A stretch of 12,972 nt of DNA from a virus (Duplodnaviria > Heunggongvirae > Uroviricota > Caudoviricetes). Shown in pieces: positions 1 through 11,107 of the stretch. The notes below the pieces were generated by a model. It was not told the DNA's origin. It searched no databases and saw only the letters and a program-made list of their open reading frames with translations. Location: IMG/VR virus record IMGVR_UViG_2728369185_000003. One strand, given 5' to 3'. The translations under genes and the position numbers were made by a program. The stretch's first letter is position 1, and every line of letters starts with the position of its first letter.

Positions 1-736
1 TGAAGGCGATGTATGCAGCGACGATTGAAAGTGAACTTGATACCGAAAAGGCCTTTGAATATATCGCCGGTGCGCCGCAGGGGCAGAAGGATAATCCGCT
101 TATTAATATTCTGGATAAGTTCTCCACCTGGTATGACACGAATAGCGTGACGCTGGGCGGTGTCAAAATTCCGCACCTTTTCCCCGGTGATGATCTGAAA
201 CTTCAGACCGCGCAGGATTCAGACAATGGATTTTCGGCGCTTGAACAGGCGCTGCTGCGGTATATCGCCGCCGGTCTTGGCGTTTCCTACGAACAGTTGT
301 CCCGTGNNNNNNNNNNNNNNNNNNNNNNNNNNNNNNNNNNNNNNNNNNNNNNNNNNNNNNNNNNNNNNNNNNNNNNNNNNNNNNNNNNNNNNNNNNNNNN
401 NNNNNNNNNNNNNNNNNNNNNNNNNNGTTTGATTTTTATCAGGCGCGATCAGCCTGGTCACGGGCTGAGTGGATTGGAGCCGGAAGAATGGCCATTGACG
501 GGCTCAAGGAGGTTCAGGAATCAGTGATGCGCATTGAGGCCGGACTGAGCACGTATGAGAAAGAGCTGGCGCTGATGGGCGAGGATTATCAGGACATTTT
601 CCGCCAGCAGGTCAGGGAATCTGCAGAGCGGGAAAAAGCCGGACTCTCACGTCCGGTGTGGATAGCGCAGGCGTATCAGCAGCAGATAGCGGAGAGTCGC
701 AGGCCGGAAGAGGAGACAACACCACGTGAGACGTAA
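1..736 (+). CDS. B: Portal protein, 3' portion (5'-partial; interrupted by a 120-nt N-run at 307..426)
   Basis: Frame-0 ORF runs from the window edge to 306; after the N-run the reading continues in a different frame (ORF 488..736, ending PRET-stop at 734..736). Residues such as ESVMRIEAGLSTYEKE and QQVRES match my recollection of the C-terminus of lambda gpB. Position immediately upstream of the C protease gene fits lambda order. The frame change across the gap means the N-run length is not exact. Confidence 0.8.
307..426. other. Assembly gap (120 N) inside portal gene
   Basis: Run of N; portal reading frame differs before and after it. Confidence 0.95.
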
Positions 737-2233
737 TCTTTCACACATTATTGCAGCAGCATTCAATGAACCGCTGCTTCTGGAGCCCGCCTATGCGCGG
801 GTTTTCTTTTGCGCGCTGGGGCGCGAGATGGGGGCAGCAAGTCTTTCGGTACCGCAACAGCAGGTACAGCTTGATGCTCCCGGGATGCTGGCTGAAACGG
901 ACGAGTACATGGCCGGAGGTAAACGACCGGCCCGTGTTTACCGGGTGGTGAACGGTATTGCGGTACTGCCGGTGACCGGCACGCTGGTGCACCGGCTGGG
1001 GGGGATGCGGCCATTTTCCGGAATGACTGGCTATGACGGCATTGTCGCCTGTCTTCAGCAGGCAATGGCAGATAGCCAGGTGCGGGGCATACTGCTGGAC
1101 ATTGACAGTCCGGGCGGGCAGGCCGCCGGCGCGTTTGACTGCGCTGACATGATTTACCGCCTCCGGCAGCAGAAGCCGGTCTGGGCACTGTGTAATGACA
1201 CGGCCTGTTCTGCGGCCATGCTGCTGGCGTCGGCCTGCTCCCGACGGCTGGTTACCCAGACATCCCGTATCGGTTCCATTGGCGTGATGATGAGCCATGT
1301 CAGCTATGCCGGTCATCTGGCGCAGGCCGGTGTGGATATCACGCNNNNNNNNNNNNNNNNNNNNNNNNNNNNNNNNNNNNNNNNNNNNNNNNNNNNNNNN
1401 NNNNNNNNNNNNNNNNNNNNNNNNNNNNNNNNNNNNNNNNNNNNNNNNNNNNNNNNNNNNNNNNNNNNNNNNTTACCGGTCTGTCTGTTGATGCAGTCAC
1501 GGGAACAGAGGCCGCTGTTTTTGAAGGTCAGTCCGGCATTGAGGCCGGGCTGGCGGATGAATTAATCAATGCGTCGGATGCCATCAGTGTGATGGCCACG
1601 GCGCTGAACAGTAATGTCAGAGGAGGCACTATGCCGCAATTAACTGCAACGGAAGCCGCCGTGCAGGAGAACCAGCGAGTGATGGGGATCCTGACATGCC
1701 AGGAAGCGAAAGGACGTGAACAGCTTGCCACGATGCTGGCAGGACAACAGGGCATGAGCGTTGAACAGGCCCGGGCGATTCTGGCCGCGGCGGCACCGCA
1801 GCAGCCGGTGGCATCCACGCAGAGTGAAGCCGATCGCATTATGGTGTGTGAAGAAGCGAACGGTCGTGAACAACTGGCGGCAACGCTGGCGGCGATGCCG
1901 GAGATGACGGTGGAAAAAGCCCGCCCGATCCTGGCGGCTGCACCACTGGCGGATGCCGGGCCCTCGCTTCGTGATCAGATCATGGCCCTGGATGAGGCAA
2001 AAGGGGCAGAAGCGCAGGCTGAAAAACTGGCGGCCTGCCCGGGAATGACCGTGGAGAACGCCCGGGCTGTGCTGGCTGCGGGATCAGGTAAGGCCGAACC
2101 GGTCTCTGCATCCACAACCGCCCTGTTTGAACATTTCATGGCGAATCATTCACCGGCAGCGGTGCGGGGTGGCGTGTCACAGACGTCAGCAGACGGTGAT
2201 GCGGACGTGAAAATGCTCATGGCCATGCCATGA
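726..2233 (+). CDS. C: Head maturation protease / scaffold, S49 (ClpP/SppA-like) family, gpC-like; interrupted by a 128-nt N-run at 1345..1472
   Basis: GTG start at 726 overlaps the portal stop by 11 nt. N-terminal part (AAFNEPLLLEPAYARVFFCAL, GIAVLPVTGTLV, GILLDIDSPGG, CSAAMLLASA, RLVTQTSRIGSIGVMM) closely resembles lambda gpC as I recall it. After the gap the protein continues in frame 2 (from 1475, TGLSVDAVTGTEAAVFEGQSGIEAGLADELINASDAISVM) into ORF 1589..2233. The 726..1565 track ORF tail after the gap is a wrong-frame artefact. Confidence 0.85.
1345..1472. other. Assembly gap (128 N) inside C gene
   Basis: Run of N; C reading frame is 0 before and 2 after. About 43 codons of the protease domain are missing, judged against my recollection of lambda gpC. 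Confidence 0.95.
1631..2233 (+). CDS. nu3: Nu3-like internal scaffolding protein, in-frame C-terminal product of C
   Basis: In-frame ATG at 1631 preceded by AGGAGG at 1621..1626. In lambda the Nu3 scaffold is translated from an internal start in the C frame. The product is Ala-rich and carries three tandem motif copies. Exact start is unverified; ATG 1589 is an alternative. Confidence 0.55.
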   Translation: MPQLTATEAAVQENQRVMGILTCQEAKGREQLATMLAGQQGMSVEQARAILAAAAPQQPVASTQSEADRIMVCEEANGREQLAATLAAMPEMTVEKARPILAAAPLADAGPSLRDQIMALDEAKGAEAQAEKLAACPGMTVENARAVLAAGSGKAEPVSASTTALFEHFMANHSPAAVRGGVSQTSADGDADVKMLMAMP

Positions 2234-2674: not shown

Positions 2675-3709
2675 ATGGGATTGTTTACGACCCGCCAGTT
2701 ACTCGGTTATACCGAACAAAAAGTGAAATTCCGTGCGCTGTTTCTGGAGCTGTTTTTCCGCCGTACGGTGAATTTCCACACCGAAGAGGTGATGCTGGAC
2801 AAAATTACCGGAAAAACGCCGGTGGCGGCCTATGTCTCCCCGATCGTTGAAGGAAAAGTGCTTCGCCATCGCGGTGGTGAAACCCGCGTGTTACGTCCGG
2901 GCTACGTCAAGCCGAAACACGAATTTAATTACCAGCAGGCGGTTGAGCGCCTTCCTGGTGAAGNNNNNNNNNNGGCTCAGCTGAACGACCCGGCCTACCG
3001 TCGTCTGCGTATCATTACCGATAACCTCAAACAGGAAGAGCACGCCATTGTCCAGGTGGAAGAAATGCAGGCGGTGAATGCCGTGCTGTATGGCAAATAC
3101 ACCATGGAAGGGGATCAGTTTGATACTGTCGAGGTGGATTTCGGGCGCTCTGAAGGAAATAACATTGAGCAGGCTGACGGTAAAAAATGGTCTGAGCAGG
3201 ACCGTGATACGTTTGATCCGACGCATGATATTGACCTCTACTGCGATCAGGCCAGCGGCCTTGTGAATATCGCCATTATGGACGGTACGGTCTGGCGTCT
3301 GCTGAATGGCTTTAAGCTGTTCCGCGAAAAACTGGATACCCGTCGCGGCTCAAATTCACAACTCGAAACGGCAGTGAAAGATCTGGGCGCAGTGGTGTCC
3401 TTCAAGGGGTATTACGGCGATCTGGCCATTGTGGTGGCGAAAACGTCTTATGTGGCAGAGGACGGTACCGAAAAACGTTATCTGCCGGAGGGCATGCTGG
3501 TGTTGGGGAATACGGCGGCAGAGGGGATTCGTTGCTATGGTGCCATTAAGGATGCACAGGCGTTGTCTGAAGGAGTGGTGGCTTCTTCCCGTTACCCGAA
3601 ACACTGGCTGACCGTGGGCGATCCGTCCTGTGAATTCACCATGACGCAGTCCGCTCCGCTGATGGTGCTGCCGGATCCGGATGAGTTTGTGGTGGTACAG
3701 GTGAAATAA
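2675..3709 (+). CDS. E: Major capsid protein gpE-like (contains a 10-nt N-run at 2964..2973, frame preserved)
   Basis: 344-aa ORF. Strings YVSPIV, PGYVKPKHE, DPAYRR, VEEMQAVNAVLYGKYTMEG, LDTRRGSNS.LETAVKDLG, RYPKHW and EFTMTQSAPLM.LPDPDEF match lambda gpE. Confidence 0.95.
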   Translation: MGLFTTRQLLGYTEQKVKFRALFLELFFRRTVNFHTEEVMLDKITGKTPVAAYVSPIVEGKVLRHRGGETRVLRPGYVKPKHEFNYQQAVERLPGEXXXXAQLNDPAYRRLRIITDNLKQEEHAIVQVEEMQAVNAVLYGKYTMEGDQFDTVEVDFGRSEGNNIEQADGKKWSEQDRDTFDPTHDIDLYCDQASGLVNIAIMDGTVWRLLNGFKLFREKLDTRRGSNSQLETAVKDLGAVVSFKGYYGDLAIVVAKTSYVAEDGTEKRYLPEGMLVLGNTAAEGIRCYGAIKDAQALSEGVVASSRYPKHWLTVGDPSCEFTMTQSAPLMVLPDPDEFVVVQVK

Positions 3710-5039: not shown

Positions 5040-5431
5040 AACACACTGACATTCGTGCCGCAGTGCTGGATGCACTCGAGCAGCATGAACACGGGGCGAC
5101 GCTGTTTGATGGTCGCCCCGTTGTTTTTGACGAAGAGGATTTTCCTGCGATCGCGGTTTATCTGACGGATGCAGAGTATACCGGTGAAGAGCTGGATGCA
5201 GATACCTGGCGGGCCACGCTGCATATTGAGGTGTTTTTACCGGCACAGGTACCGGATTCAGAGCTTGATCAGTGGATGGAAAGCCGGATTTACCCGGCGA
5301 TGACCGCGATCCCGGCACTGGCAGGACTGATTACCACGATGGTTACGCAGGGCTATGAGTATCGTCGTGATGACGATATGGCGTTATGGAGTTCTGCAGA
5401 TCTGACTTATTCCATTACATACGAGATGTGA
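5036..5431 (+). CDS. U: Tail terminator protein gpU-like
   Basis: 131-aa ORF with ATGA overlap to [54 protein letters not shown] and [14 protein letters not shown] match lambda U. Confidence 0.92.
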
Positions 5432-5438
5432 GGACGAT

Positions 5439-6191
5439 ATGGCAACACCAAATCCCCTTGAGCCGGTAAAAGGTGCCGGTACCACTCTGTGGGTTTACAA
5501 CGGCAAGGGTGATGCTTATGCAAACCCGTTGTCAGACGATGACTGGCAGCGACTGGCTAAGGTGAAGGATCTGACGCCGGGCGAGATGACGGCAGAATCC
5601 TACGATGATAACTACCTGGATGATGAAGACGCGGACTGGACCGCGACCGGGCAGGGGCAGAAATCTGCAGGTGATACCAGTTTTACGCTGGCCTGGAAAC
5701 CGGGAGAGGAAGGCCAGAAAGGGCTTATAGGCTGGTTTGAAAGCGGCGATGTCCGGGCCTATAAAATCCGTTTTCCGAATGGCACGGTGGATGTGTTTCG
5801 TGGCTGGGTCAGCAGTATCGGTAAGGCCGTGACGGCGAAAGAAGTGATCACCCGCACGGTGAAAGTCACTAACGTGGGTAAACCTTCTGTAGCGGAAGAA
5901 CGCAGCAAAATTACGCCGGTCAGTGCGATTAAGGTGACGCCGACATCCGGTACGGTGGCAAAAGGGAAAACAACCACCCTGACGGTTTCTTTTGAGCCGG
6001 AAAGTGCAACCGACAAGACGTTCAGAGCGGTTTCCGCCGATCCGTCGAAAGCCACCATTAGTGTGAAAGATATGACAATTACGGTAAACGGCGTGGCGAC
6101 AGGTAAGGTGCAGATCCCTGTGGTGAGCGGAAATGGTCAGTTCGCCGCAGTGGCTGAAGTCACCGTTACTGAAGCGGGCGCTGCAGGGTAA
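5439..6191 (+). CDS. V: Major tail tube protein gpV-like with C-terminal Ig-like (Big_2-type) domain
   Basis: 250-aa [75 protein letters not shown] and [40 protein letters not shown] match lambda V. The C-terminal part ([26 protein letters not shown]) is the Ig-like region. Confidence 0.95.
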
Positions 6192-6636: not shown

Positions 6637-7076
6637 ACTTTGCCCTCAGACTGGCGCGTGAGATGGGGAGACCCGACTGGCGCGCCATGCTTGCCGGGAT
6701 GACATCCACCGAATATGCCGACTGGCACCGTTTTTACCGCACGCATTATTTTCAGGATACCCAGCTGGATATGCATTTTTCCGGGCTGACGTACGCTGTA
6801 CTCAGCCTGTTTTTTTGCGATCCGGATATGCATCCCTCTGATTTCAGTCTGCTTGTCCCCCGGCATGAGGAAGAGCAGGTGGAGAGGCCGGATGAGGACA
6901 AAATGCTGATGCAGAAAGCGGCAGGACTTGCCGGAGGCGTCCGGTTCGGTGGGGACGGAGGGCGCGATATTTTATCGTCTGCGGATGTGGCGGATGTCAT
7001 GGTGGATGATGCCGCATTAATGATGGCTTCAGCGGGGATTCCGGGAGGTGTGAGATATGTCCCAGCCGGTTGGTGA
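6205..7076 (+). CDS. T: G-T fusion tail assembly chaperone made by -1 frameshift; T portion about 6617..7076
   Basis: The -1 frame after the slippery site reads LNFALRLAREMGRPDWRAMLAGM.STEYADWHRFY.THYF and GLTY.VLSLFF.DPDMHP, matching lambda gpT. T has no independent start near the shift point. Stop at 7074..7076. Confidence 0.85.
6612..6618 (+). promoter_or_regulatory. -1 programmed ribosomal frameshift slippery heptamer G GGA AAG (G to G-T)
   Basis: GGGAAAG sits in the X XXY YYZ register relative to the G frame (codons gga 6613..6615, aag 6616..6618), near the 3' end of G. The -1 frame continues without a stop into ORF 6663..7076. This is the same heptamer and geometry as the lambda G-T frameshift. 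Confidence 0.85.
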
Positions 7077-10000
7077 TCTTGTTATTGACCTGAGTCTGGA
7101 TGCTGTCCGTTTCGATGAGCAGATGAGCCGGGTAAGGCGTCATTTTTCAGGTCTGGATACCGACGCCAGAAAAACCGCCAGTGCTGTTGAACAGGGCCTG
7201 AGCCGCCAGGCGCTGGCTGCACAAAAAGCCGGGATTTCCGTCGGGCAGTATAAAGCGGCCATGCGAACCCTGCCCGCACAGTTTACGGATATCGCCACGC
7301 AGCTTGCCGGTGGTCAGAATCCCTGGTTGATCCTGCTGCAACAGGGCGGTCAGGTGAAGGACTCCTTCGGCGGGATGATCCCCATGTTCAGGGGGCTTGC
7401 CGGTGCGATCACCCTGCCGATGGTCGGGGTCACCTCGCTGGCGGTGGCGACAGGTGCGCTGGCGTACGCCTGGTACCAGGGCGACGCCACGCTTTCAGAA
7501 TTTAATAAAACGCTGGTCCTTTCCGGCAATCAGGCCGGACTGACTGCCGATCGTATGCTGACGCTCTCAAGAGCCGGGCAGGCAGCAGGGCTGACGTTTA
7601 ACCAGGCGAGAGAGTCACTGGCAGCCCTGGTGAATGCCGGTGTGCGTGGTGGTGAACAGTTTGATGCCATCAACCAGAGTGTCGCGCGTTTTGCGTCTGC
7701 ATCCGGTGTGGAGGTGGATAAAGTCGCTGAAGCCTTCGGGAAGCTGACCACTGACCCGACGTCGGGACTGATGGCGATGGCGCGCCAGTTCCGTAACGTG
7801 ACGGCAGAGCAGATTGCGTATGTTGCACAGCTGCAGCGTTCCGGAGACGAGGCCGGGGCATTGCAGGCGGCGAACGATATCGCCACGAAAGGCTTTGATG
7901 AGCAGACCCGTCGCCTGAAAGAAAACATGGGAACACTGGAGACCTGGGCGGATAAAACAGGGAAGGCATTCAAATCGATGTGGGATGCCATTCTGGATAT
8001 CGGTCGTCCGGAATCCTCAGCGGATATGCTCGCCAGTGCGCAGAAGGCATTTGATGAGGCGGATAAAAAATGGCAGTGGTACCAGAGCCGGAGCCAGCGC
8101 CGGGGAAAGACCTCCTCTTTTCGTGCGAACCTTCAGGGGGCATGGGATGACCGGGAAAATGCCCGTCTGGGTCTGGCAGCGGCCACGCTGCAGTCGGATA
8201 TGGAAAAAGCCGGTGAACTGGCGGCAAGGGACAGGGCTGAGCGTGAGTCGTCACAGCTGAAGTATACCGGAGAGGCGCAGAAGGCGTATGAGCGCCTGCA
8301 GACGCCGCTGGATAAATATACCGCCCGTCAGAAAGAGCTGAATAAGGCCCTGAAAGACGGAAAAATCCTGCAGGCGGATTACAACACGCTGATGGCGTCG
8401 GCAAAAAAGGATTATGAATCGACGCTGAAAAAGCCGTCAGGTGTGAAGGTGTCTGCCGGTGAGCGCCAGGAAGACCGGGCGCATGCAGCCCTGCTGGCGC
8501 TTGAAACCGAGCTCAGGACGCTGGAAAAACACAGCGGTGTGAATGAGAAAATCAGCCAGCAGCGCCGGGATTTATGGGAAGCGGAAAGTCAGTATGTGGT
8601 CCTGAAAGAGGCCGCCACGAAACGGCAGTTATCTGAGCAGGAAAAATCCCTGCTGGCTCATGAGAAAGAGACGCTGGAGTACAAACGCCAGCTGGCTGAG
8701 CTGGGAGACAAGATTGAACACCAGAAGCGGCTGAATGAGCTGGCACAGCAGGCGGCGCGGTTTGAACAGCAGCAAAGCGCGAAGCAGGCGGCAATCAGCG
8801 CAAAAGCCCGCGGCCTCACCGACCGTCAGGCGCAGCGGGAGTCGGAAGAGCAGCGCCTTCGTGAGGTGTACGGTGATAATCCGGCTGCGCTGGCGAAGGC
8901 CACATCGGCACTGAAGAACACCTGGTCTGCGGAGGAGCAGCTTCGTGGAAGCTGGATGGCCGGGATGAAGTCCGGCTGGGGAGAGTGGGCGGAAAGTGCG
9001 ACGGACAGTTTTTCGCAGGTTAAAAGTGTGGCCACGCAGACCTTTGACGGTATTGCACAGAATATGGCGGCGATGCTGACCGGCAGCGAACAGAACTGGC
9101 GGGGATTCACCCGTTCCGTGCTGTCCATGATGACAGAAATTCTGCTTAAGCAGGCAATGGTGGGGATTGTCGGGANNNNNNNNNNTCTGGCGCTGAATAA
9201 CGTCATGTCAGAGCAGAAAAAGACCTGGGCGGCTGAAGACCTGCTTCGCGGGAACTGGATGGCAGGCCTGAAGTCCGGCTGGAGTGAGTGGGAAGAGAGT
9301 GCCACGGACAGTATGTCGCAGGTTAAAAGTGCTGCCACGCAGACCTTTGATGGTATTGCGCAGAATATGGCGGCGATGCTGACCGGCAGTGAACAGAACT
9401 GGCGCAGCTTCACCCGTTCCGTGCTGTCCATGATGACAGAAATTCTGCTTAAGCAGGCAATGGTGGGGATTGTCGGGAGTATCGGCAGCGCCATTGGCGG
9501 GGCTGTTGGTGGCGGCGCATCCGCGTCAGGCGGTACAGCCATTCAGGCCGCTGCGGCGAAATTCCATTTTGCAACCGGAGGATTTACGGGAACCGGCGGC
9601 AAATATGAGCCAGCGGGGATTGTTCACCGTGGTGAATTTGTCTTCACAAAGGAGGCAACCAGCCGGATTGGCGTGGGGAATCTCTATCGGCTGATGCGCG
9701 GCTATGCCACCGGTGGTTATGTCGGTACACCGGGCAGTCTGGCTGACAGCCGGTCGCAGGCGTCCGGGACGTTTGAGCAGAATAACCATGTGGTGATTAA
9801 CAACGACGGCACGANNNNNNNNNNAAATCTCTACCGGCTGATGCGCGGCTATGCCACCGGCGGTTATGTCGGTGGCACCGGAAGTCCGGCGCAAATGCGG
9901 CGTTCAGAGGGTATCAGGTTTGAGCAGAACAACAACGTGGTGATTCAGAACGACGGTACGAATGGTCTGCCAGGTCCACAGATGATGAAGGCGGTGTATG

Positions 10001-10080
10001 ACATGGCCCGCAAGGGTGCCCGTGATGAAATCCAGGCACAGATGCGCGATGGTGGTCTGTTCTCCGGAGGTGGACGATGA
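7057..10080 (+). CDS. H: Tail tape measure protein gpH-like; the ORF contains two 10-N runs, each flanked by diverged tandem copies of the same segment
   Basis: 1007-aa apparent ORF, start overlapping the T end. N-terminal and central motifs (VGDLV.DLSLDA.RFDEQM, GISVGQYKAAMR.LPAQFTD.ATQLAGGQ.PWLILLQQGGQVKDSFGGMIPMFRGLAGAITLPMVG, SGNQAGLTADRML, VARF.SASGVEVDKVAEAFGKLTTDPTSGL) and the Gly-rich C-terminal region match lambda H. Apparent length is inflated by about 130 aa of duplicated sequence. Confidence 0.9.
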   Translation: MSQPVGDLVIDLSLDAVRFDEQMSRVRRHFSGLDTDARKTASAVEQGLSRQALAAQKAGISVGQYKAAMRTLPAQFTDIATQLAGGQNPWLILLQQGGQVKDSFGGMIPMFRGLAGAITLPMVGVTSLAVATGALAYAWYQGDATLSEFNKTLVLSGNQAGLTADRMLTLSRAGQAAGLTFNQARESLAALVNAGVRGGEQFDAINQSVARFASASGVEVDKVAEAFGKLTTDPTSGLMAMARQFRNVTAEQIAYVAQLQRSGDEAGALQAANDIATKGFDEQTRRLKENMGTLETWADKTGKAFKSMWDAILDIGRPESSADMLASAQKAFDEADKKWQWYQSRSQRRGKTSSFRANLQGAWDDRENARLGLAAATLQSDMEKAGELAARDRAERESSQLKYTGEAQKAYERLQTPLDKYTARQKELNKALKDGKILQADYNTLMASAKKDYESTLKKPSGVKVSAGERQEDRAHAALLALETELRTLEKHSGVNEKISQQRRDLWEAESQYVVLKEAATKRQLSEQEKSLLAHEKETLEYKRQLAELGDKIEHQKRLNELAQQAARFEQQQSAKQAAISAKARGLTDRQAQRESEEQRLREVYGDNPAALAKATSALKNTWSAEEQLRGSWMAGMKSGWGEWAESATDSFSQVKSVATQTFDGIAQNMAAMLTGSEQNWRGFTRSVLSMMTEILLKQAMVGIVGXXXXLALNNVMSEQKKTWAAEDLLRGNWMAGLKSGWSEWEESATDSMSQVKSAATQTFDGIAQNMAAMLTGSEQNWRSFTRSVLSMMTEILLKQAMVGIVGSIGSAIGGAVGGGASASGGTAIQAAAAKFHFATGGFTGTGGKYEPAGIVHRGEFVFTKEATSRIGVGNLYRLMRGYATGGYVGTPGSLADSRSQASGTFEQNNHVVINNDGTXXXXNLYRLMRGYATGGYVGGTGSPAQMRRSEGIRFEQNNNVVIQNDGTNGLPGPQMMKAVYDMARKGARDEIQAQMRDGGLFSGGGR
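9176..9185. other. 10-N gap inside H at a duplication junction
   Basis: Run of exactly 10 N flanked by diverged copies of the same H segment (about 8884..9175 and 9186..9477). Confidence 0.95.
9815..9824. other. 10-N gap inside H at a second duplication junction
   Basis: Run of exactly 10 N flanked by diverged copies of the same H segment (9679..9814 and 9825..9960). Confidence 0.95.
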
Positions 10081-10406: not shown

Positions 10407-11107
10407 TGCAGGATATCCGGCAGGAAACATTGAATGAATGCACCCGTGCGGAGCAGTCGGCCAGCGTGGTGCTCTGGGAAATCGATCTGACAGAGGTCGG
10501 TGGAGAACGTTATTTTTTCTGTAATGAGCAGAACGAAAAAGGTGAGCCGGTCACCTGGCAGGGGCGACAGTATCAGCCGTATCCCATTCAGGGGAGTAGT
10601 TTTGAACTGAATGGCAAAGGCACCAGTACGCGCCCCACGCTGACGGTTTCTAACCTGTACGGTATGGTCACCGGGATGGTGGAAGATCTGCAGAGTCTGG
10701 TCGGCGGAACGGTGGTCAGGCGTAAGGTTTACGCCCGTTTTCTGGATGCGGTGAACTTCGTCAACGGAAACAGCGACGCCGATCCGGAGCAGGAGGTGAT
10801 CAGCCGCTGGCGCATCGAGCAGTGCAGCGAACTGAGTGCGGTCAGTGCCTCCTTTGTACTGTCCACACCGACGGAAACGGATGGTGCCGTTTTTCCGGGG
10901 CGCATCATGCTGGCTAATACCTGCACCTGGACCTATCGCGGTGATGAGTGCGGTTATCACGGTCCGGCGGTCGCGGATGAATATGATCAGCCGACTTCCG
11001 ATATCACGAAGGATAAATGCAGCAAATGCCTGAGCGGCTGTAAGTTTCGCAATAACGTCGGCAACTNNNNNNNNNNNNNNNNNNNNNNNNNNNNNNNNAT
11101 CCCATGA
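10406..11107 (+). CDS. L: Tail tip protein gpL-like with C-terminal Cys cluster; 3' end obscured by a 32-nt N-run at 11067..11098
   Basis: Start overlaps the M stop (TGATG). The sequence up to the gap is near-identical to my recollection of lambda L (MQDIRQETLNECTRAEQSASVVLWEIDLTEVGGERYFFCNEQNEKGEPVTWQGRQYQPYPIQGS, CTWTYRGDECGY, CSKCLSGCKFRNNVGN). The exact stop is uncertain because of the gap. Confidence 0.88.
   Translation: MQDIRQETLNECTRAEQSASVVLWEIDLTEVGGERYFFCNEQNEKGEPVTWQGRQYQPYPIQGSSFELNGKGTSTRPTLTVSNLYGMVTGMVEDLQSLVGGTVVRRKVYARFLDAVNFVNGNSDADPEQEVISRWRIEQCSELSAVSASFVLSTPTETDGAVFPGRIMLANTCTWTYRGDECGYHGPAVADEYDQPTSDITKDKCSKCLSGCKFRNNVGNXXXXXXXXXXXIP

Follow-up and report, generated by a model that had tools for sequence, protein, structure and literature searches.

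How many copies of its conserved module does the scaffold region of a lambdoid prohead protease carry, and what might additional copies mean? The question is raised by a viral DNA of 12,972 nucleotides (Caudoviricetes; IMG/VR record IMGVR_UViG_2728369185_000003), the whole of which we call the window. It is a lambdoid head-tail module, and its gpC-like gene (726-2233, plus strand) encodes an S49 prohead protease with a C-terminal scaffold region. An earlier note, made from the letters of this DNA, had pointed to three tandem Ala-rich segments within that region and had considered that they might simply belong to the architecture of the family. We have therefore analyzed the origin, the distribution and the predicted fold of the repeated unit. 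Our comparisons of sequence identify the feature, almost certainly, as the phage 21 allele of the lambdoid protease/scaffold pair (gene 5/gene 6, equivalent to lambda C/Nu3) in an E. coli prophage-like segment. The triplication is thus already known, having been recorded for phage 21 decades ago. The full explanation given here is chiefly one of identity and evolutionary history, and we consider it likely to be correct.

Three diverged units in the scaffold region

All three peptides quoted in the earlier note are found exactly in the translation, at 1676-1798, 1835-1945 and 1976-2086, in the 3' third of the gpC-like gene. The interval given there for the whole array, 1676-2083, ends 3 nucleotides short of the true end at 2086. 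Extended by conserved residues at their N-terminal sides, the units become tandem, in-frame, Ala-rich segments of about 40 amino acids on the plus strand: unit 1, ENQRVMGILTCQEAKGREQLATMLAGQQGMSVEQARAILAAAAP, at 1667-1798; unit 2, EADRIMVCEEANGREQLAATLAAMPEMTVEKARPILAAAP, at 1826-1945; and unit 3, LRDQIMALDEAKGAEAQAEKLAACPGMTVENARAVLAAGS, at 1967-2086. They are separated by short linkers rich in Pro, Gln and Ala (QQPVASTQS at 1799-1825 and LADAGPS at 1946-1966, both on the plus strand) and are followed by a C-terminal tail of 48 amino acids (2087-2230, plus strand).

The tandem repeat is genuine. Pairwise local alignments of the units score 82-103 under BLOSUM62, against means of 21-24 for shuffled sequences (z = 12-20), and the observed score was reached by none of 2000 shuffles. 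Any two units share 19-22 identical residues across 35-36 aligned columns, and 16 columns are invariant in all three. At the level of DNA the picture is different. Nucleotide identity between the units is 54-64%, and where two units have the same residue they use the same codon in less than half of the cases (9/25, 9/19 and 10/21 for the three pairs). Tandem Repeats Finder finds nothing at the units, and overall the repeat detection in DNA by this program and by find_repeats gave short chance matches only. Since there is no DNA repeat, nucleotide identity is low and common codons are few, the duplication must be old and is neither a recent slip nor an assembly duplication. The repeats are also free of any run of Ns: there is none within 1473-2233, and the nearest lies at 1345-1472. 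On both points the judgement of the earlier note was sound.

The consensus of the unit reads E-r-x-R-I-L-x-C-E-E-A-K-G-R-E-x-L-A-x-x-L-A-x-t-P-G-M-T-V-E-x-A-k-a-I-L-A-A-A-P. A set of 102 diverse units has I5, E10, A11, G13, R14, A18, L21, A22, M27, A32 and L36 as its near-invariant positions. Unit 3 is the most diverged of the three. It reads EAKGAE and has Ala at R14 (window 2006-2008, residue 126 of the Nu3-like protein), a position that is Arg in 97 of the 102 diverse units (EAxGRE). The same Ala is present in unit 3 of phage 21 and of PhiR5_1. Unit 3 may be functionally weakened or specialised.

The locus is the phage 21 allele

The DNA from 1475 to 2233 (759 nucleotides) shares 96.6% identity with phage 21 (M81255.1 and OL657228.1) and 99.2% with an E. 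coli prophage record. The Nu3-like protein encoded here and phage 21 gp6 are identical at 192 of 200 residues, with 8 substitutions. In M81255.1, the 'Bacteriophage 21 head gene operon', gene 6 contains three repeat_regions, the 'Tri1 box', 'Tri box' and 'Tri3 box', and all of them bear the comment 'function unknown; putative'. In window coordinates these boxes lie at 1698-1801, 1838-1948 and 1979-2092 and overlap units 1, 2 and 3, respectively. A genome announcement of phage 21 from 2022 confirmed M81255 as a phage 21 fragment and does not mention the repeats. The sequence match, the mapping of the Tri boxes and the S49 character of the N-terminal part together lead to the identification as the phage 21 allele with an already recorded triplication.

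The N-terminal part of the gpC-like reading frame is an S49 peptidase, so that the repeats do fall in the Nu3-like scaffold part of gpC, where the earlier note had placed them. Residues 146-205, upstream of the N-run at 1345-1472, match Pfam Peptidase_S49 (PF01343, E=2.4e-13), and the C-terminal end of the same profile is matched after the N-run, which masks part of the domain. The gene also matches PHROG 53, 'head maturation protease' (E=3e-104), and it is 96.5-97.6% identical in DNA to phage 21 gene 5 (501 amino acids), of which it is the homologue.

The N-run also explains why this gene appears broken. According to the alignment with phage 21, its 128 Ns stand in the place of 126 nucleotides, and this creates an apparent frame break; the list of open reading frames (ORFs) accordingly splits the gene into 726..1565 and 1589..2233, and both flanks of the N-run are in frame with phage 21 gp5. 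The ORF 1589..2233, in which the earlier note had placed the repeats, is not a separate gene, as the GTG at 1589 is merely the first start codon past the break. The actual reading frames are most probably the gpC-like frame 726-2233 and a nested Nu3-like frame 1631-2233. The latter is an in-frame scaffold gene of 200 amino acids on the plus strand, homologous to phage 21 gp6, which we predict from a Shine-Dalgarno sequence AGGAGG at 1621-1626, a spacer of 4 nucleotides and an ATG at 1631-1633, as read from the sequence of the plus strand (1621-1633). Both phage 21 records annotate the homologous site as ribosome-binding site and start of gene 6.

Start annotations of the nested genes differ between the two phages. 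In RefSeq NC_001416 lambda nu3 is 5132..5737 (201 amino acids; L003 833-1438), with a start inside the protease domain. The start of phage 21 gene 6 is the Shine-Dalgarno-ATG site homologous to codon 309 of lambda gpC, and a lambda product initiated there would have 131 amino acids. Thus, the RefSeq annotation of lambda nu3 and the annotation of phage 21 gene 6 are not equivalent.

One unit is the norm, three are derived

A unit profile was searched against 1.84 billion protein cluster representatives. The number of matched proteins was 430 at E<=1e-3, 45 at E<=1e-10 and 5 at E<=1e-30. Of the best 150 among the 430, nearly all have a single matched stretch, in a ranking that favours multi-copy proteins. 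When the representatives were re-scanned, 136 had one unit, 5 had two and 2 had three. Among the representatives of at least 350 amino acids, 53 of 54 carry one unit, and the unit ends at a median of 52 residues before the C-terminus. Our copy-number statistics come from this library and from a phage collection; a first protein search had mostly given truncated gene calls. In the phage collection the unit is present in 230 records, with 249 matched places in total. Among the matches listed, those with more than one place belong to phage 21-like coliphages and to Salmonella Gifsy-1, and there is one place in lambda, 434, HK630, phi80, mEp237, the Stx1 phages and many Proteus, Klebsiella, Aeromonas, Vibrio and Xylella phages.

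Lambda gpC has one match to the unit profile (residues 357-399) and phage 21 gp5 has three, so that the earlier note was right to suppose about one such unit in lambda. That note had also reasoned that the triplication would not be remarkable if lambda and most homologues had three units as well; what we find is one unit in lambda and one in nearly every full-length representative. Three copies are therefore a derived, minority architecture, and one copy is the norm. Within E. coli the three-unit form is common. Of 5426 complete E. coli genomes, 1864 (34%) carry a three-unit scaffold region (coverage at least 80%), in up to five copies per genome, and 3200 carry the lambda-type one-unit region. 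The three-unit and the one-unit forms are the two common alleles of the gene in E. coli prophages.

Some proteins from E. coli depart from both forms. In P0025 there are four units, of which 2-4 resemble one another closely. P0013, P0016 and P0022 are three different in-frame two-unit deletion variants of the phage 21-type scaffold: in P0022 the first unit is a hybrid of units 1 and 2, and P0013 and P0016 are without most or all of unit 2. These two-unit derivatives may come from defective prophages. The unit also occurs in stand-alone proteins of 120-200 amino acids. Two of the stand-alone proteins, P0092 and P0111, are unrelated, and each carries two units of its own type. P0092 (195 amino acids, L004 5001-5588), whose units are of a diverged type, is encoded after a small-terminase-like gene and before the genes for a 297-amino-acid protein without a known family and for a tape-measure protein, and no S49 protease gene is found near it in the 10.6-kb locus. 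It may be the separate scaffold gene of a small phage or satellite. In P0147, a cluster representative of 844 amino acids, the N-terminal domain of a tape-measure protein (PF06791) is fused to an entire gpC of the lambda type; a chimeric gene call or a misassembly is the most likely origin.

History of the repeat and selection on the units

In a neighbour-joining tree of the units every unit 1 groups with the unit of lambda, and these units have a longer N-terminus (ENxRVMGIL) in common. The additional units form a separate clade and are three residues shorter, and several of them cluster with units at the same position in other proteins and not with those of their own protein. Unit 1 and the lambda unit are orthologues; the ancestor of units 2 and 3 was a copy from which three N-terminal residues had been lost. 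The gpC homologue of Gifsy-1 likewise carries these three units, so that the triplication is older than the separation of the E. coli and Salmonella (Gifsy-1) lineages. In the wider family the copy number ranges from one to four and has changed repeatedly through gains and losses. The closeness of units 2-4 in P0025 points to a more recent amplification in that lineage.

Selection was assessed by comparison with Gifsy-1. The rate of nonsynonymous substitution (dN) is 0.16, 0.22 and 0.30 in units 1, 2 and 3, lies above the units in the linkers (0.37-0.57) and is highest in the C-terminal tail (0.81); the rate of synonymous substitution (dS) is saturated. With synonymous sites saturated and dN in the units below that of the linkers and the tail, we conclude that purifying selection acts on all three units and that the constraint drops from unit 1 to unit 3.

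Predicted structure of the unit

AlphaFold was run on the single sequence, with a poor result (predicted local distance difference test score, pLDDT, of 63), and AlphaFold2 with an alignment of 23 sequences, with a better one. The model from the alignment, which is still of only moderate confidence, has three short helices in each unit at a pLDDT of about 75-83 (about 80 in unit 1). The helices comprise residues 6-21, 30-37 and 44-53 in unit 1, 66-71, 80-87 and 94-103 in unit 2, and 113-118, 127-134 and 141-151 in unit 3. Linker 1 is predicted to be disordered (pLDDT <50 at residues 58-62), and short helices are predicted in the tail for ALFEHFMANH and VKMLM. Given the low confidence of the linkers and a predicted template modelling score of 0.28, no fixed arrangement of the units relative to one another is predicted. 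The model suggests that each unit may fold alone as a small three-helix domain on a flexible chain, which would then be followed by a tail with two short helices.

A Foldseek search of the model against viral structure models returned S49 prohead proteases as its top three matches; these are local, cover 57-64 columns and restate the homology. What is modestly new in our analysis is a unit without a curated family or structure, a norm of one copy, and a copy number of one to four that arises by repeated gain and loss.

Possible role of the unit and alternative explanations

Lambda Nu3 is essential (PMC10695390). According to published reports it associates with itself, interacts with C, E and B (PMC3224144) and is needed for portal incorporation (PMC3224144; PMC10275583). 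No other part of the scaffold region is as conserved as the unit, which is common to the protease (gp5/gpC) and the scaffold (gp6/Nu3). This conservation, the presence in both proteins and the occurrence in stand-alone proteins without a nearby protease gene suggest to us that the unit may be a protein-protein interaction element of the scaffold. Being common to protease and scaffold, it would help to bring both into the procapsid. Three copies would then provide a multivalent and longer-reaching scaffold arm and not a new activity. We propose this interaction module tentatively, as a mechanism that is possible but somewhat short of probable. A broader generalization is more doubtful still. 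In this view the unit would be a three-helix scaffold domain that folds autonomously, is not yet curated and is widespread among the S49 prohead protease/scaffold proteins of phages of Proteobacteria. Its copy number of one to four, attained by repeated and independent gain and loss, might act as an evolutionary dial for the valency of the scaffold or its reach to a partner (capsid protein, portal or scaffold).

Several observations weigh against such a role. No Pfam or NCBIfam family covers the unit in scans of the scaffold region and nine diverse homologues. Neither the protein nor the unit profile found more than chance matches among PDB sequences, and Foldseek found nothing significant for the AlphaFold model in the PDB. 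Unit 3 is without the near-invariant Arg, and the natural two-unit derivatives P0013, P0016 and P0022 indicate that three copies may not be required. Finally, phage 21 and lambda both have T=7 capsids of similar size, and the extra units come without an obvious change in geometry.

Some of these observations would be expected if the extra units were mostly tolerated padding, with unit 1 alone being functional, units 2 and 3 serving at most as a spacer, and copy number drifting by unequal recombination. The spread of one to four copies among close relatives fits such a drift, and the two-unit forms do resemble unequal crossovers, as seen in the hybrid first unit of P0022. The Ala at R14 of unit 3, the rise of dN along the units and the roughly 35 fewer low-complexity residues before unit 1 than in lambda, which partly offset the added length, can be read in the same way. 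However, the constraint on units 2 and 3 clearly exceeds that on the linkers and the tail, with synonymous sites saturated, these two units retain the family positions I, E-A, G, A, L-A, M and A...L, and the three-unit form persists in the E. coli and Salmonella lineages, including 1864 E. coli genomes. We therefore regard padding, the main alternative, as unlikely. That three units are simply the architecture of the family, lambda included, is an impression one could gain from the 19 phage 21-like records of the phage collection and Gifsy-1, all of which have the three-unit arrangement; it is refuted by the single match in lambda gpC, by the one unit in 53 of 54 full-length representatives and by the one place in 434, HK630, phi80, mEp237 and the Stx1 phages, and we give it hardly any credence.

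The assembly itself could be suspected, because the window does contain near-duplicates at N-runs in its tape-measure ORF (8887-9175 against 9190-9478, and 9679-9814 against 9826-9961). As an artefact of assembly or scaffolding the scaffold repeats would nevertheless make little sense: no N-run lies in 1473-2233, the units are only 54-64% identical in nucleotides, and the same arrangement recurs in phage 21 records that were sequenced independently, as well as in 19 further phage records and 1864 complete genomes. This explanation is refuted and we attach virtually no probability to it. It is also very improbable that the repetition is a DNA-level element, such as a set of regulator-binding sites, and not a feature of the protein. 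OL657228 annotates two minus-strand matches to the CII-site pattern TTGYN6TTGY in the gene, which correspond to 1636-1649 and 1870-1883 of the window. Yet the pattern occurs at chance level (2 found against 2.3 expected, and at least two matches in 128 of 200 shuffles), its matches are out of register with the units, and no repeat is detectable in the DNA. It is the amino acids that are conserved while synonymous sites are saturated, and there is no Rfam match; Rfam and promoter/terminator scans returned nothing relevant. We thus retain the identification as the phage 21 allele, with its old triplication of a constrained protein module.

For discovery this result has little weight, as the triplication has long been recorded and the allele is one of the two common forms in E. 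coli prophages. Its residual value is descriptive: a conserved and constrained module of an essential scaffold protein is without a curated family or structure. The natural variants with one, two, three and four units are a ready series for work on scaffold valency in procapsid assembly and on the incorporation of the protease.

Neighbouring genes and other features of the window

The ORFs of the window follow the order of a lambdoid head-tail module: the end of the portal gene, the gpC-like gene, a decoration gene (115 amino acids, Shp/D-like), the major capsid gene (344 amino acids, 2675-3709), head-completion and tail genes, the tape-measure gene and tail-tip genes. The gpC-like gene thus lies between the portal and the decoration/major capsid genes, in the order that is also annotated in phage 21 and Gifsy-1. 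In total the window has six N-runs, at 307-426, 1345-1472, 2964-2973, 9176-9185, 9815-9824 and 11067-11098. The effect seen in the gpC-like gene may extend to other ORFs that cross an N-run (the end of the portal gene, the capsid gene and the gene L/K region).

The tape-measure ORF (7057-10080) contains two duplicates. The segment 8887-9175 is repeated at 9190-9478 with 86% identity across the Ns at 9176-9185, and 9679-9814 is repeated at 9826-9961, likewise with 86% identity, across the Ns at 9815-9824. These look like the contig ends of two diverged prophage alleles that were joined by a scaffolder, and not like a true tandem duplication. For this reason the tape-measure ORF of 1007 amino acids is probably inflated.

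Comparison with phage 21, lambda, Gifsy-1 and P22

The closest known system is the gene 5/gene 6 pair of phage 21, which has the same gene order, the same site of the predicted nested start and the same positions of the three units as the window. The copy in the window differs from it by the 8 amino-acid substitutions and by being a draft assembly with N-runs, and the architecture is identical.

Lambda gpC/Nu3 combines an S49 protease domain with a scaffold region, as in the window, and its protease and scaffold have a common C-terminus, as predicted for the window. The one unit of lambda is orthologous to unit 1 (24 of 39 residues identical), and the C-terminal tails are related, with the tail of the window matching the TALDRLMQG...NDLLNTPV tail of lambda. 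However, lambda gpC has 439 amino acids and one unit, compared with 501 amino acids and three units in phage 21 gp5. Lambda has a longer low-complexity stretch before its unit, and phage 21 has about 35 fewer such residues before unit 1.

In Salmonella the gpC homologue of Gifsy-1 (STM2605.Gifsy1, 498 amino acids) shows the three units in unchanged order, flanked by the same genes, and its annotation refers to phage 21 gp5/gp6. This protein is about 60% identical to that of the window. In contrast to the window, unit 3 of Gifsy-1 retains the Arg, and its unit 1 has GHE instead of GRE.

The scaffolding protein of phage P22 carries a C-terminal helix-turn-helix domain that binds the coat protein, a small helical module for a transient interaction in procapsid assembly. 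A P22-type domain was sought in the PDB without a sequence match at E<1 or a Foldseek match at E<=0.001, the latter with a multi-domain model of moderate confidence, so that a distant resemblance is possible. The P22 domain is present in a single copy at the extreme C-terminus, whereas the distance of the units described here from the C-terminus has a median of 52 residues (range 39-183). We liken the two as a functional analogy alone: both are small helical modules of a scaffold.

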